Origin: Haliscomenobacter sp. | Lineage (GTDB): Bacteria > Bacteroidota > Bacteroidia > Chitinophagales > Saprospiraceae | Reading direction: 5' to 3' | NCBI RefSeq assembly: GCF_965225875.1 | Contig: NZ_CBDDBS010000003.1 | Span: forward strand, 2,320,701 to 2,384,700 | Length of the DNA: 64,000 nt | Shown: positions 1 to 61,886 of the stretch, piece after piece | Layout: every line of letters starts with the position of its first letter | Numbering within the stretch: the first letter of the stretch is position 1 | Program-made: the position numbers and the translations under genes | The notes under the pieces: generated by a model | Told to the model about the DNA's origin: nothing | Databases searched by the model: none | Seen by the model: the letters and a program-made list of their open reading frames with translations, nothing else

Positions 1-225
1 GGCCCGTTTGGTCCCTTCAACCACCTGGGCTTCGAAGTCGAGGATGACGATGTCTTCGGCGCGGAGGCTCGCGTAGGGCACTCCACTGGGTTTAATGGCA
101 AAAACCCCAGCAGAGCGATCCGCCACACTGGCATTGCCAAAGGTGAAGAGCACCAATCCCAGTTGGGGCAGTTGCATATTGGCTTCGTAACAAGCTTCTT
201 TAAGGCTTTGGTAAGCGCTTTTCAT
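1..225 (-). CDS. araD: L-ribulose-5-phosphate 4-epimerase, 5' part only (runs off the left edge)
   Basis: Not in the ORF track; my translation from ATG at 225 is MKSAYQSLKEACYEANMQLPQLGLVLFTFGNASVADRSAGVFAIKPSGVPY..., a class II aldolase/AraD N-terminus (TFGN, IKPSG). It lies directly downstream of araB. Confidence 0.9.
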   Translation of the reverse strand, partial: MKSAYQSLKEACYEANMQLPQLGLVLFTFGNASVADRSAGVFAIKPSGVPYASLRAEDIVILDFEAQVVEGTKRA

Positions 226-258
226 TGTTGGTTATTTTCAGGCAGCTTCGCTGCTGGG

Positions 259-372
259 TTTTTCACCACCTTAGAAACTTTAGGCACTTAAGACACACCT
301 TAGTTACTAAGTACATTGTTTCATATGCTTAGGTGTAACTTAAGTGCCTCAGGTTTCTGAGGTGGTGAAAAA
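259..372. repeat. Palindromic element H: 45-bp inverted arms containing ~9-nt CAC(C/T)T(T/A)AG units
   Basis: Arms 259-303 and 328-372 match at 39/45. Termini are TTTTTCACCAC...GTGGTGAAAAA. It fills the araB-araD gap. Confidence 0.85.
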
Positions 373-374
373 AA

Positions 375-2039
375 TTACTTCTTTTCCACAAAATCCCCGA
401 ATCGGCCATACTCAGCGTACAGTTTTTCATACAGTGCTGCATTGGCCGGAATGGGATGGTAAATTTTATCAAAACCATTGCCCATTACCTGCATGGCACT
501 CGCCACATCGGGGTATACCCCTGCGGCTACGGCGGCATACATGGCTGCGCCCAAAGCGGGAGCTTGTTCCGAGCGGGCGATTTTAATGGGGCGGTTCAGT
601 ACATCGGCCAGGGTTTGCATGACCAGGTCCGATTTTTTGGCTACACCACCCATGCCTACCACGGCTTTGATGGGAATGCCTTCAGCTTCAAAGCGGTCGA
701 CAATTTTTTTGGAGCCAAAACAAATCGCTTCGACCAGGGCCTTGAAGATCGCGGGGGCATCCGAGCCCATGTTCAAACCCATGATGGCGCCCTTCAGGCT
801 TTGATCTGCATCCGGGGTACGGCGACCATTGACCCAGTCCAGGGCGACGATCCCGGTTTGGGCGACGGGGATTTGGGCGGCAGCTGCGCTAAGTTGGGCG
901 ATGATTTTGTCTTCCATTTCGTCCAGAAGCGCCGTTTTGGTGGCTTCATCCAGCAACTGGCTTTGTGGCAGCAGTTGTTGCAATGGCCAGGTAATGACTT
1001 GTTTGAACCAGGCCAGTAAGTCGCCAAAAGCAGACTGACCAGCTTCCAGTCCCATCATACCGGGTACGATGGAACCATCCACCTGACCACAGATGCCGTG
1101 GACGAGTTTGTCTTGTACTTCATCTAGTGGCGCTACCAACATGTCACAAGTGGAAGTGCCCATTACTTTGATGAGGGTATAGGCTTCGGCTTCGCCGCCT
1201 ACTGCTCCAGCGTGGGCATCAAAGGTACCTACGCTCACTACCACGCCTTCGTGTAAGCCCAGGCGTTGCGCCCATTCGGCGGAGAGATTACCCGCAGCTT
1301 CATCAGCGGTATAGGTATCCTGGTAGAGGCGATCGCGCAGACCCGCGAGTTTGGGTTCGAGGTGGGTTAAAAAGTCCTCGGATGGCAAACCATCCCAGGA
1401 TTCGTGCCACATGGCTTTGTGCCCGGCAGCACAGCGGCTGCGTTTGGTGCTCAGGGCATCATCGCCTCCGATGAGCAGGTGGGTGATCCAGTCGCAGTGC
1501 TCCATCCAGGAATAGGCGGCTTGTTGTACGGCTTCGTCCTGGCGGATGGTATGGGTGATTTTGGCCCAAAACCATTCGGAAGAATAAATACCCCCTTCGT
1601 ACATGGTGTAGTCGATGCCACCCCAAGCACGAGCTTTGTGGTTGATTTCTTCGGCTTCGGCCAGAGCGGTATGGTCTTTCCAAAGGATGAACATGCCGTT
1701 GGGATTTTCGGCAAATTCGGGCAGGAGGGCCAAAGGTGTGCCCGTTTTATCTACCGCAACTGGTGTTGAGCCAGTGGTGTCAACGGTGATGCCAACAACG
1801 AACTTGGGATCCAAACCCGGCAATTGCTTCAAGGTGCGGACGATGGCGTCTTCCAGACTTTCTACATAATCGAGGGGATGCTGGCGAAACTGGTTTTGGG
1901 CAGGCTTACAGTACAAACCTTTTTTCCAGCGTGGGTAGTAGGTGACGGCACTGGCCAATTCGGCACCGTTAGCGGTATCAACCAGCACTGCGCGGACCGA
2001 ATCGGTGCCAAAATCAGCGCCGAGGACGTATCGATTCAT
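375..2039 (-). CDS. araB: Ribulokinase (FGGY carbohydrate kinase)
   Basis: 554 aa. N-terminal GADFGTDSVR phosphate loop, DTTGSTP, WKDHTA, DWVNGRRTP; adjacent to araD. Confidence 0.93.
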   Translation of the reverse strand: MNRYVLGADFGTDSVRAVLVDTANGAELASAVTYYPRWKKGLYCKPAQNQFRQHPLDYVESLEDAIVRTLKQLPGLDPKFVVGITVDTTGSTPVAVDKTGTPLALLPEFAENPNGMFILWKDHTALAEAEEINHKARAWGGIDYTMYEGGIYSSEWFWAKITHTIRQDEAVQQAAYSWMEHCDWITHLLIGGDDALSTKRSRCAAGHKAMWHESWDGLPSEDFLTHLEPKLAGLRDRLYQDTYTADEAAGNLSAEWAQRLGLHEGVVVSVGTFDAHAGAVGGEAEAYTLIKVMGTSTCDMLVAPLDEVQDKLVHGICGQVDGSIVPGMMGLEAGQSAFGDLLAWFKQVITWPLQQLLPQSQLLDEATKTALLDEMEDKIIAQLSAAAAQIPVAQTGIVALDWVNGRRTPDADQSLKGAIMGLNMGSDAPAIFKALVEAICFGSKKIVDRFEAEGIPIKAVVGMGGVAKKSDLVMQTLADVLNRPIKIARSEQAPALGAAMYAAVAAGVYPDVASAMQVMGNGFDKIYHPIPANAALYEKLYAEYGRFGDFVEKK

Positions 2040-16513: not shown

Positions 16514-16642
16514 GCACAAAGGACACAATGGAAAGCACAGAGGACACAAAGTTAGACGTAGACAAGGATTATTCTTTAGAAATATGACCTCTGTCAACAT
16601 CTAACTTTGTGTCCTTTGTGCATTCCATTGTGTCCTTTGTGC
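16514..16642. repeat. Palindromic element F: 43-bp inverted arms, each a duplicated ~21-nt GCACAAAGGACACAA unit
   Basis: Arms 16514-16556 and 16600-16642 match at 41/43 around a 43-bp spacer, between convergent pyrB and the GxxExxY gene. Confidence 0.9.
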
Positions 16643-16688: not shown

Positions 16689-17060
16689 TCACAAAATCAC
16701 GCGTCGCACCCCATCCCGAAACAGCAAGGTGTTGAAATTCATCAAAAGCCCCAAATTACAATCTGCCAACCGCAAATAAGTCAACAGTTGCGCCAAATGC
16801 ACATCGGTCAGGGATTCAACGGCCTTCAATTCTATGATCAACTTTTCCTCGACCACTAAATCAGCCCGATAGCCTACCTCAAGTTTCACCTCGTTGTAAA
16901 TCAAGGGAATCGCCTTTTGCTTCTCCACCTTGAGCCCCAATTGCTTCACCTCATAAGCTAAGCACTCCAGATACGCATTTTCCAACAATCCTGGCCCCAG
17001 GGCCTTGTGTACCTTCAAACCACACCCAATGGCCAATCTGGCCAGTTCATTCTCTGACAT
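16689..17060 (-). CDS. GxxExxY protein (PD-(D/E)XK nuclease superfamily)
   Basis: 123 aa with GPGLLENAY (GxxExxY), YRADLVV...IIELK (D...ExK) and GLLMNF. Confidence 0.92.
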   Translation of the reverse strand: MSENELARLAIGCGLKVHKALGPGLLENAYLECLAYEVKQLGLKVEKQKAIPLIYNEVKLEVGYRADLVVEEKLIIELKAVESLTDVHLAQLLTYLRLADCNLGLLMNFNTLLFRDGVRRVIL

Positions 17061-23745: not shown

Positions 23746-23874
23746 TGGGATGTTTTTATCAAGGTTAAAGATGTTTTGATTAAAGACCTTACATCCCAAT
23801 GTGTCAAACGCAGTTTGTTCCGTTCCACTTTTTTTTATTTTTTTGTAACCATTTAGCAGCCGCCTGCGGCGGAA

Positions 23875-23960
23875 TTTTTCACCACAAAGGCACAAAGACA
23901 CAAAGACATTAAGCTCTAAAATGTTGTGTCTTTGTGCCTTTGTGCCTTTGTGGTGAAAAA
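23875..23960. repeat. Palindromic element E: CACAAAG(G/A) octamer arms with TTTTTCACCAC termini
   Basis: Arms 23875-23908 and 23927-23960 match at 33/34. Termini identical to element H. Confidence 0.9.
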
Positions 23961-24021
23961 AATTGAATGTGAAATCCACCGCAGGTGGATGGGCGCTAAA
24001 TAGTTATATTTTTTTAACTGC

Positions 24022-34286: not shown

Positions 34287-35588
34287 TCAATAGCTCCGAT
34301 AGCCCCGGATGCCCGAAAAAATTCGTTCAATAAACCGGCGCTCCTCGGTAATGATGCGACCTTTCCCATACAATTCCTCATCACTGGGCACCAGCTTCCC
34401 GGCCGTAGTTACCATTTTATTGGGGAAAATTACCTCAACGGCCACTTCCGATTTTTCGCCATCGTCACGGGGGGATAAGGCTTTCCAGGCTACTATCCCC
34501 TCCAGGACACCAAACTCCTGAAAGTCCAGGCTTTCCAAACGGACCACTACTTTTTGATTGAGTTTAACCCGGCCTGAGCGATTGAAAGGAATGAACATTT
34601 TGCCGATTATCTCTTTATTTTTGTTGGGAATGACCACCATCAATTGTTCATCTTTGTACACAAAGCTGTTCTCCGCTACATTTCTACCCACAATTTGAAC
34701 CATGCCGCTGCGTGGAGATTCAATGAGGTGGCGCTGCTTCCAGGTGTTCACACCTTCCCGCAAGTGGTTGAACGACTCTCTTAGCACATCTGAAGCAAAA
34801 TTGGTTTCATTGTCGGCACCACTTTCCAGGCTGCGCACCTTGATTCGTAATGCAGAAAGCTCTGATTCCCGATCGCGGATTTCGGTTTCGGTACGAATCA
34901 ATTCCTTGTTGAATTCCATAATCCGGCTCTGTACCCGATTGACATCATCCTGGGAAGCTTGATTCACCGAGACGAGGTGTTCCTTGTTTTTTCGTTCTTG
35001 TTCGGCTACGGCTATCTGCTCCTGAATCTGCCTGCGCATTTCTTTTTGGTAGTCGAGACTCCGATCCAGGCGACTAATTCTGCTCTGGGAAGAGCGCAAG
35101 TCAGAACTGGAAAGGTCTTTGTACAGCTCAGAGTTGTACTTGAGTTGTACGTCCTGGAAGTCAAATAAATCCGCTTGCAATTCCCCCAGTACCAGATTAC
35201 TGGGGACCTTGAACTTCAACAAGTCTTCATCCCGCAAACTGTGTAGTGCAGTGATGTAGTCATCAAGCGTCAATACATGGCGGAAATTAGCGGTGCTGCG
35301 AAAGGCAATCAGGGCTTGTCCCGAATCCACCTGGCTATTGTTTTTCACCACCACTTCTTCAATTCGATTGGCGTTGGGGGCAGTGATGCGCACGGGTGGA
35401 TCTTTGGAAACCAAACGTATATCCGCCTCTACTATATCAGGGTATTTTACCAAAAAAGACAGCCACATCAAAACGACAAACAGGGCCAAGGCGGTCAAGC
35501 TACCCCAACGCACCATCCAGGAGGGCGGTGTCCCCAGAATTTCCTGTACTTCCTCGCTGCGGATTTCAATGTCTTCTAATTCTTTCAT
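34287..35588 (-). CDS. HlyD family secretion adaptor
   Basis: RSEEVQEILGTPPSW N-terminus, one TM, long coiled coil, IESPRSG, GRIITEERRFIERIF. Confidence 0.9.
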   Translation of the reverse strand: MKELEDIEIRSEEVQEILGTPPSWMVRWGSLTALALFVVLMWLSFLVKYPDIVEADIRLVSKDPPVRITAPNANRIEEVVVKNNSQVDSGQALIAFRSTANFRHVLTLDDYITALHSLRDEDLLKFKVPSNLVLGELQADLFDFQDVQLKYNSELYKDLSSSDLRSSQSRISRLDRSLDYQKEMRRQIQEQIAVAEQERKNKEHLVSVNQASQDDVNRVQSRIMEFNKELIRTETEIRDRESELSALRIKVRSLESGADNETNFASDVLRESFNHLREGVNTWKQRHLIESPRSGMVQIVGRNVAENSFVYKDEQLMVVIPNKNKEIIGKMFIPFNRSGRVKLNQKVVVRLESLDFQEFGVLEGIVAWKALSPRDDGEKSEVAVEVIFPNKMVTTAGKLVPSDEELYGKGRIITEERRFIERIFSGIRGYRSY

Positions 35589-61433: not shown

Positions 61434-61886
61434 ATGGGACAATCTCTAGTAAAGAACTACATCCACATCGTATTCAGCACCAAATACCGCCAGCAGCTGA
61501 TCTACCCGCCTTATGAGCAGGAGCTGCACAGTTACCTGGGGGGGATATGCAATGAGCTGGGCTGTCAATCCATCATCGTGGGAGGGTATACTGATCATGT
61601 GCATATTCTGTGCCTCTTATCCAAAAAGATAGCGCTGATGGACTTGGTGGAAAAGGTGAAAGCCAATTCTTCGAAATGGTTCAAGACGAGGCATGAATCG
61701 CTTAAGAATTTTTACTGGCAGGACGGGTATGGGGCCTTTTCGGTAAATCCAAAACAAGTAGACATTGTGATTAGGTACATTGCCAACCAACATGAACACC
61801 ACCGAAAAAAGGACTTCCAAGCGGAATACAGGGCTTTTTTGAAAAAGTACAAAGTAGAATATGATGAGCGCTACGTTTGGGAGTAA
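61434..61886 (+). mobile_element. tnpA: IS200/IS605-family Y1 HUH transposase (TnpA / RAYT-like)
   Basis: 150 aa; YIHIVFSTKYR, HUH motif DHVHIL, WQDGYGAFSV, catalytic Tyr in YIANQHEHH. Confidence 0.9.

Follow-up and report, generated by a model that had tools for sequence, protein, structure and literature searches.

Analysis of two repeats that share their first and last words in Haliscomenobacter DNA revealed two different families with different modes of spread. Element E is a MITE of about 163 bp that was spread by IS66-type transposition. Element H, located between araB and araD, is an old palindromic element that lacks a target duplication and is kept directly after stop codons. The motif TTTTTCACCAC…GTGGTGAAAAA common to both is an inner module and not a transposon terminus. 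We infer in addition a link of this module to GxxExxY genes, and with this link included the account as a whole appears reasonably probable. The window, i.e., the whole stretch of DNA that was analyzed, comprises 64,000 nucleotides (C3:2320701-2384700) of a genome of 8.37 Mb with 47% G+C.

A preliminary description of the window had placed a common 11-mer at the start and a common 15-mer at the end of the two elements. Both words lie exactly there:

259-269 (H) and 23875-23885 (E): TTTTTCACCAC
362-376 (end of H) and 23950-23964 (end of E): the 15-mer GTGGTGAAAAAAATT

The 15-mer occurs five times in the genome, compared to 0.016 expected occurrences, and ten genomic elements have outer ends of exactly the TTTTTCACCAC/GTGGTGAAAAA type. 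A third copy of TTTTTCACCAC in the window (35341-35351) is positioned inside a coding sequence without a partner arm and is a chance match. The araB-araD region is organized as follows:

1-225, minus strand: 5' part of araD, downstream of H, with the start codon at 223-225
242-254, plus strand: small GC hairpin GCAGC-TTC-GCTGC, followed by a T-run
259-303, plus strand: left arm of H, with a T-run (259-263), CACCAC (264-269) and CTTAG, CTTTAGG, CTTAAG and CCTTAG words; full-length match to the H-arm profile
304-327: loop of H, 24 nt, not conserved
328-372, plus strand: right arm of H, an inverted copy of the left arm; the A-run at 368-374 abuts the araB stop codon (375-377)
375-2039, minus strand: araB (ribulokinase), upstream of H; the proteins of relatives are 86 to 99% identical

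Comparison of the two elements revealed a module with the same order of parts: a T-run, CACCAC, short tandem words, the same stretch inverted, and, adjoining a T- or A-run, a small GC hairpin that resembles a terminator. Tandem-word arms, the T-/A-run junction and small outer GC hairpins are all three present in both H and the core of E. Neither contains a GxxExxY gene between its arms. The words of the module differ, and the unit types named in the preliminary description were both found. The arms of H (45 nt, 87% complementary, separated by the 24-nt loop) are made up of CACCTNAG-like units of about 9 to 10 nt. The arms of the E core (23875-23908 and 23927-23960; 34 nt, 97% complementary, loop of 18 nt) each contain three CACAAAGR octamers at a spacing of 8 nt. 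RNA folding of the H region including the small hairpin (238-380) gave -63 kcal/mol (z -9.9 versus shuffled controls), and folding of the full E unit gave -91 kcal/mol (z -14 versus shuffled controls). The GC hairpins reported to adjoin the elements are real as well and, like the shared motif, a systematic feature; the one at E, previously given as CCGC-CT-GCGG (23860-23869), was refined to CCGCC-TGC-GGCGG (23860-23872). This hairpin and the one at 242-254 obtained terminator-like scores on the plus strand, and the pattern of an intrinsic terminator (a GC stem-loop followed by a T-run) fits the small hairpins on the strand opposite the local genes. Read on the gene-sense minus strand, the 242-254 hairpin appears as an A-run and GCAGCGAAGCTGC, with a GAA loop. 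The long stems of H and E, with a T-run before and an A-run after them, do not fit an intrinsic terminator. Judged from sequence, the small hairpins with their T-run are probably intrinsic terminators that would stop transcription into the element, and the stems of 35 to 45 bp, once in mRNA, would probably serve as 3'-end barriers or RNase III sites. A search for RNA runs of this organism yielded none, and the metatranscriptome contigs that it returned contained 5 to 10% of the words.

Element E is positioned between two minus-strand genes. A search with the E locus returned a repeat unit of about 160 nt and not of 86 nt. The interval first assigned to E (23875-23960) is therefore its core hairpin, and the full repeated unit extends from 23845 to 24007:

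23837-23844, plus strand: left 8-bp target-site duplication ATTTTTTT
23845-24007, plus strand: full element E, a MITE of about 163 bp; repeat unit 85 to 96% identical to the other copies
23845-23857, plus strand: left TIR GTAACCATTTAGC
23860-23872, plus strand: left small hairpin CCGCCTGCGGCGG, belonging to the IS66-type left end
23875-23960, plus strand: core hairpin with CACAAAGR arms and a conserved loop, ATTAAGCTCTAAAATGTTG
23976-23988, plus strand: right small hairpin CCACCGCAGGTGG, paired with the left small hairpin when the entire unit is folded
23995-24007, plus strand: right TIR GCTAAATAGTTAT; the family consensus ends in C
24008-24015, plus strand: right 8-bp target-site duplication ATTTTTTT

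The TIRs of the family are perfect over 13 bp (GTAACTATTTAGC/GCTAAATAGTTAC), and 25 genomic copies carry both. The flanking 8-bp repeats are perfect in 21 of the 25 copies and match at 7 of 8 positions in 2 more; in the control, the best shifted offset reached 6 of 8. Target sites consist of 76% A+T. In two sister species, G001 (C767) and G005 (C162), the E site is empty between flanks of about 90% identity and reads …TTTTTTTTATTTTTT-CACCAC….

A scan of the genus for these TIRs revealed, in both G004 and G008, pairs at a distance of 1513 bp. The 1513-bp IS contains a single open reading frame of 475 aa that matches PF03050 (DDE_Tnp_IS66) at an E value of 3.8e-41. The IS and E can be aligned over about 30 nt at their left ends, a stretch that contains the small hairpin AGCCGCCTTCGGCGG, and over 19 nt at their right ends, so that the small GC hairpin before E is part of an IS66 end. 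A TIR starting with GTAA and an 8-bp target duplication are the hallmarks of the IS66 family in the ISfinder description. The TIRs of E lie 30 nt outside TTTTTCACCAC/GTGGTGAAAAA, and what had been taken for its termini is therefore internal cargo. Neither a PF03050 gene nor an IS with the TIRs of E was found in the genome studied here. These results indicate that E is a MITE spread by IS66-type transposition and that its IS66-family partner survives in sister species but has been lost from this genome. The partner is present in multiple copies in G004 (at least 19 TIR hits; one copy, L212, is G004:C45:1-1513). Many G004 contigs (C1, C6, C26, C30 and others) begin about 125 nt inside this element, which accordingly breaks the assembly of G004.

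In E, IS66 ends (the TIR GTAACTATTTAGC and the small hairpin) enclose a gene-less tandem-word hairpin in place of the transposase gene. The IS66 transposase, acting in trans, moved E and produced the 8-bp duplications in A+T-rich targets. E resembles the IS and MITEs of the IS66 family in the GTAA start of its TIR, the 8-bp duplication and the PF03050 partner, which has about 30 nt of its left end and 19 nt of its right end in common with E. Unlike an IS66 MITE arisen by simple internal deletion, it has as its interior a tandem-octamer hairpin that belongs to the hairpin superfamily of this genome. Unlike IS66 systems with a resident transposase, it is found in a genome from which the transposase is absent. 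BrickBuilt is a MITE of Porphyromonas gingivalis in which small inverted-repeat ends surround an array of tandem short repeats and which is always intergenic (PMC4596501). E is like BrickBuilt in being a Bacteroidota MITE that encloses tandem short repeats; BrickBuilt differs from E in containing a head-to-tail 23-nt minisatellite without a palindrome of 8-nt words, and its published abstract mentions no IS66 ends (PMC4596501).

The copies of H do not follow this pattern. The genomic search for further copies, as proposed in the preliminary description, showed that H and E both belong to multi-copy families. The H family comprises 348 arms in this genome, as detected with a 44-nt arm profile. 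The arm consensus of 44 nt is not self-complementary and has neither a GTAG nor a CGTC tag. Arms occur as 143 inward-facing pairs, in which the T-run/CACCAC ends meet, as 9 outward-facing pairs and as 44 single arms. The centers of the inward-facing pairs measure 2 to 51 nt, and the longer ones (27 to 29 nt) hold a small hairpin, e.g., CCTGC-TTC-GCAGG, and a T-run. The araB-araD copy represents the rare outward-facing form, followed by an A-run and GCAGCGAAGCTGC. The latter has 21 genomic copies, mostly after the A-run of outward-facing long hairpins of several arm families. The palindrome of H ends sharply at the last CTNAG. The two arms of one pair covary, with an identity of 0.67 at variable positions compared to 0.46 for random pairs; this covariation is strongest near the center and decays outward, and the word copy number differs between arms.

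H elements are located 0 to 20 nt after stop codons. With gene calls from a crude ORF caller, 76 of 142 lie in convergent gaps and 4 of 142 in divergent gaps, compared to a background over all gaps of 19% and 23%, respectively. Flanking direct repeats had a mean length of 2.4 versus 2.6 in shuffled pairs, i.e., no target duplication was detected for H. Where the neighboring genes are co-directional, the terminator-like hairpin in the center of H is oriented against transcription at a ratio of 20:7; the GCAGCGAAGCTGC class gave 7:7, and a polarity rule was treated as unproven. With regard to a replication-strand bias of the small hairpins, the GC skew is weak. A stop triplet (TAA, TAG or TGA) is contained in the CTNAG words of H. 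At about 15 H elements (e.g., C2:2148594 and C2:162680), called genes end 2 to 9 nt inside the first word, and H thus seems to supply the stop codon.

Of 12 Haliscomenobacter genomes, 7 contain the H arm; of 29 genomes outside the genus, none does. Relatives of the AraB protein belong to Haliscomenobacter and Saprospiraceae, and five relatives retain H in the araB-araD spacer. In a relative with a 97% identical AraB, this spacer contains a hairpin with different ends (TTTTGAACCATC…), and in one with an 86% identical AraB, it consists of 15 nt with neither the hairpin nor a small hairpin. The spacer comparison suggested in the preliminary description did reveal an element-less spacer, the single empty case found for H: the site is empty in the more distant relative L010. 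In L060 the two genes run directly into each other. For 14 other H loci, the flanks were joined and searched in five sister species. The insert was present, usually at about the same length, in every scorable comparison at 13 of the 14 loci (about 40 of 40 comparisons, which are not phylogenetically independent). No empty site was detected at the 14 loci in the five species; at the remaining locus the gaps measure 0.8 to 2.4 kb. These results show that six species have inherited H at shared sites.

The elements change while their sites persist. The centers are inverted between species at loci 6, 11 and 13. At locus 1, the centers are shortened, or a small hairpin is present in some species only. 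At loci 2, 8, 9 and 10, H is replaced as a whole by another arm family in G005 or G008. Species that lack H carry in the H slots other tandem-word hairpins (CACAGATT, TTTTAAG or ACGCGGATG words) or plain small hairpins. The complete sister genome G002 has no exact H arm, CACAGATT-word hairpins in H slots and nine GxxExxY genes. Between H orthologues, 8.6% of the arm sites differ, and 29 double compensatory changes were counted versus about 4 to 16 expected. After rate heterogeneity is taken into account, this suggests an excess of about 2-fold, which is not strong.

H and E are part of a larger set. The genome contains about 1170 long intergenic hairpins of tandem-word design, of which about 177 are H and about 112 are E-like, and these hairpins are strongly biased to gene 3' ends. 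About 880 of them are neither H nor E-like. A very abundant further family has arms of AGTTGAGG octamers and a GGCTACCGCAGCG core (C1:9725, 73436, 176432 and many others), and still other families use TGACGAA or TGATGAA words. Two further repeats were observed in the genome. One of 1.33 kb has about 10 copies (C2:1641418-1642749, C3:2422902-2424233 and 8 more); its first ORF encodes 99 aa and is helix-turn-helix-like, and the repeat may be an IS with a frameshifted transposase. The other is an IS5/IS1182-like element of 1.53 kb with 3 copies.

All three PF13366 GxxExxY genes of this genome are located next to or inside tandem-word hairpins. The first, in an E-like unit at C2:1166930-1167520, lies between E-like arms (TTTTTACCACAAAGGCACGAAG…), beyond which small hairpins are located. 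Downstream of the second, the module present after araB recurs: an H-like hairpin, then an A-run and GCAGCGAAGCTGC. The third (TIGR04256/PF13366; 123 aa) lies in the window at 16689-17060 on the minus strand and is followed by a hairpin (16514-16640) with arms of approximately 21-nt words (CACAAAGGACACAATGGAAAG). The orthologous gene in G004, G005 and G011 has an H-type hairpin downstream. True H arms bracketing a GxxExxY gene were not found; H-type hairpins occur solely downstream of the gene.

Within the genus, a pair of tandem-word arms of 25 to 69 nt encloses most GxxExxY genes; the arms are about 490 to 600 nt apart, with small GC hairpins beyond the T- and A-runs. In a Bacteroidota sample, arms of at least 20 nt bracket 15 of 28 GxxExxY genes, compared to 1 of 28 displaced controls, and the arm words in this sample, too, are CAC-based. 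The strict bracket [AT]3-ACCAC…GTGGT-[AT]3 was found at 7 of 54 GxxExxY genes and the reversed arrangement at 0 of 54. Other genera have about two arms per GxxExxY gene and no gene-less spread, which makes the gene-less expansion a trait of Haliscomenobacter, where 3 genes stand beside about 1170 hairpins. G000 and G011 share one gene-bearing unit that four sister species lack; in these, an intact hairpin of another family (GTTGAG) fills the gap. The unit is thus located within an older, split hairpin. No clean target duplication was readable for the C2:1166930-1167520 unit, and compared to the sister species, the inserted stretch is larger and untidy.

In the GxxExxY (PDDEXK_3) proteins, the motif D67, E77-x-K79 is invariant. 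An AlphaFold2 model built with 34 homologues reached a pLDDT of 65, and Foldseek against the PDB returned nothing below E = 1; a sequence search of the PDB gave no match. A survey of PD-(D/E)XK proteins gives the function of the GxxExxY family as unknown (PMC3424549), as does Pfam, and a literature search returned no paper linking a GxxExxY protein to palindromes. GxxExxY proteins of Flavobacterium and Ignavibacterium (P0042, P0046, P0098 and P0115) are 65 to 70% identical to that of Haliscomenobacter over 123 aa; for organisms this distant, the identity is unusually high and hints at horizontal spread or strong constraint.

H and the E core are probably gene-less relatives of the GxxExxY-hairpin units. 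The putative link to the nuclease is drawn from the adjacency of genes and hairpins. The GxxExxY nuclease would act on the hairpin or a cruciform and would in this way lead to copying, flipping of centers and replacement among copies. Such a system would be comparable to a REPtron or TIRtron, except for its enzyme. A more far-reaching version, which we put forward tentatively as a possibility, regards GxxExxY as the enzyme of a third REPtron-like system. A small PD-(D/E)XK nuclease would recognize palindromes of tandem CAC-words and would copy, flip and replace them. The roughly one thousand gene-less hairpins of Haliscomenobacter, including H and the E core, would be the result. The capture of one of these hairpins by IS66 ends would have been followed by a second round of spread, as MITE E.

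The main rival explanation, which we consider rather unlikely, is that the hairpins are selected by the host at 3' ends as terminators or mRNA stabilizers. They would arise in place by slippage within the short words, symmetrization of palindromes and gene conversion between copies, and GxxExxY genes would be passengers homing into the loops. The filling of the same slots in all species by different families or plain hairpins, the stability of H at orthologous sites and the strong bias to gene 3' ends are in line with this. The same holds for the word copy number that varies between arms, the covariation that decays away from the center and the GxxExxY unit inside the split GTTGAG-family hairpin. 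However, about 350 near-identical arms of 44 nt need a copying process and not independent origins, and long stems with a T-run before and an A-run after are the opposite of a two-way terminator. The araB-araD site, empty in L010 and closed gene to gene in L060, indicates that no hairpin is required there. The gene-plus-arm unit is, moreover, conserved across the phylum even without gene-less copies.

The reading that H and E form one MITE type, with fixed TIRs TTTTTCACCAC/GTGGTGAAAAA around a variable interior and a transposase that recognizes these termini, is largely refuted, and we regard it as very unlikely. This was the view of the preliminary description. It drew on the identical 11-mer and 15-mer, to which the ten elements with exactly these outer ends and the TTCACCAC…GTGGTGAA arms around some GxxExxY genes can be added. 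It holds for E insofar as E is a true MITE, but TTTTTCACCAC/GTGGTGAAAAA are not its ends: E terminates 30 nt further outward in GTAACTATTTAGC, where the 8-bp duplications also lie, and it has an IS66 element for a partner. For H, the motif is at the center of the element in 143 of 152 pairs, no flanking duplication is present and no empty site was detected in any scorable comparison at the 14 loci in five sister species. H and E are therefore not a single type of element with constant TIRs and variable cargo. As to an autonomous partner with the shared termini, no IS of this genome has the motif at its ends; an orthologous GxxExxY gene has an H-type hairpin downstream but is not bracketed by it, and some GxxExxY genes are bracketed by arms starting with TTCACCAC.

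According to a further explanation, H elements would be doublets of the REPIN kind that are mobilized via single-stranded hairpin DNA by the genome's Y1 (RAYT-like) transposases. Of the 8 Y1_Tnp matches in the genome, 6 are strong and full length. The inverted-doublet architecture of H, the missing target duplication and the GNA triloops of the small hairpins, a highly stable structure in single-stranded DNA, would agree with it. Nevertheless, each examined Y1 gene is flanked by other GC-rich REP-type palindromes and none by H or E arms, and H arms carry no GTAG tag and are not themselves palindromes. A RAYT link of H and E was rejected on the grounds that the Y1 genes carry other repeats, and the explanation is highly improbable. 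The window itself contains a Y1_Tnp gene (IS200/IS605- or RAYT-like; 61434-61886, plus strand) with GC-rich REP-type palindromes upstream.

That H and E encode small structured RNAs or cis-regulatory RNAs from a known class is scarcely credible, as their folds are very stable but they are strand-symmetric palindromes in hundreds of copies, E has TIRs and target duplications, and a search of H and E against Rfam 15 gave no match at the gathering score and only sub-threshold noise from plant miRNA precursor hairpins. Integron attC sites, which have conserved stem bases and variable interiors and are located after genes, were set aside; the elements described here do not form arrays but are scattered, for the most part between convergent genes.

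Several known repeat systems resemble H and the putative GxxExxY system in part. REPINs and REPs are reportedly associated with RAYT genes (Bertels and Rainey 2011). BIMEs of Escherichia coli show alternating repeat orientation and a small set of linker motifs and are found at gene 3' ends and within operons. H is like BIMEs in being a mosaic of alternating repeat units and few linker motifs; it differs in its unrelated sequences, its much longer stems and the tandem-word substructure of its arms. Correia elements (NEMIS) of Neisseria are palindromes of 100 to 150 bp that are cotranscribed with neighboring genes, and their RNA stems are cut by RNase III. They have 26-bp TIRs and a TA duplication, and H has neither. 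The putative RNA effect of H in araB-araD is modeled on these elements. Among repeat-nuclease systems, REPtrons (REPIN/REP and RAYT) and TIRtrons were compared with H (PMC3733652). H resembles them as a family of hundreds of extragenic palindromic doublets after genes without target duplications. The GxxExxY system resembles them in its small single-copy nuclease-type gene flanked by members of a repeat family and in its lineage-specific families. Unlike REPs, H has 44-nt arms that are not palindromes themselves, contain tandem words and lack a GTAG or CGTC tag. The GxxExxY gene, unlike RAYT, encodes a PD-(D/E)XK protein and not an HUH/Y1 transposase, and in contrast to a REPtron, this genome's own Y1 genes carry other repeats.

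A motif that H and E have in common gave the impression of a single element, and separating the two revealed that one genome harbors two spreading modes. E exemplifies the orphan MITE in textbook fashion: its IS66 parent persists solely in sister species. About one fifth of the intergenic gaps of this 8-Mb genome hold a long tandem-word palindrome, in slots that are conserved while their occupants change. H and its relatives are therefore a tractable system for the maintenance and replacement of palindromic repeats. For annotation, these hairpins break assemblies and sometimes provide the stop codon of the upstream gene. The bracketing by arms across Bacteroidota suggests a candidate substrate for the uncharacterized and very large GxxExxY family, and if the proposed role of the enzyme is true, the GxxExxY system would be the third of its kind after the RAYT and TIRYT systems.
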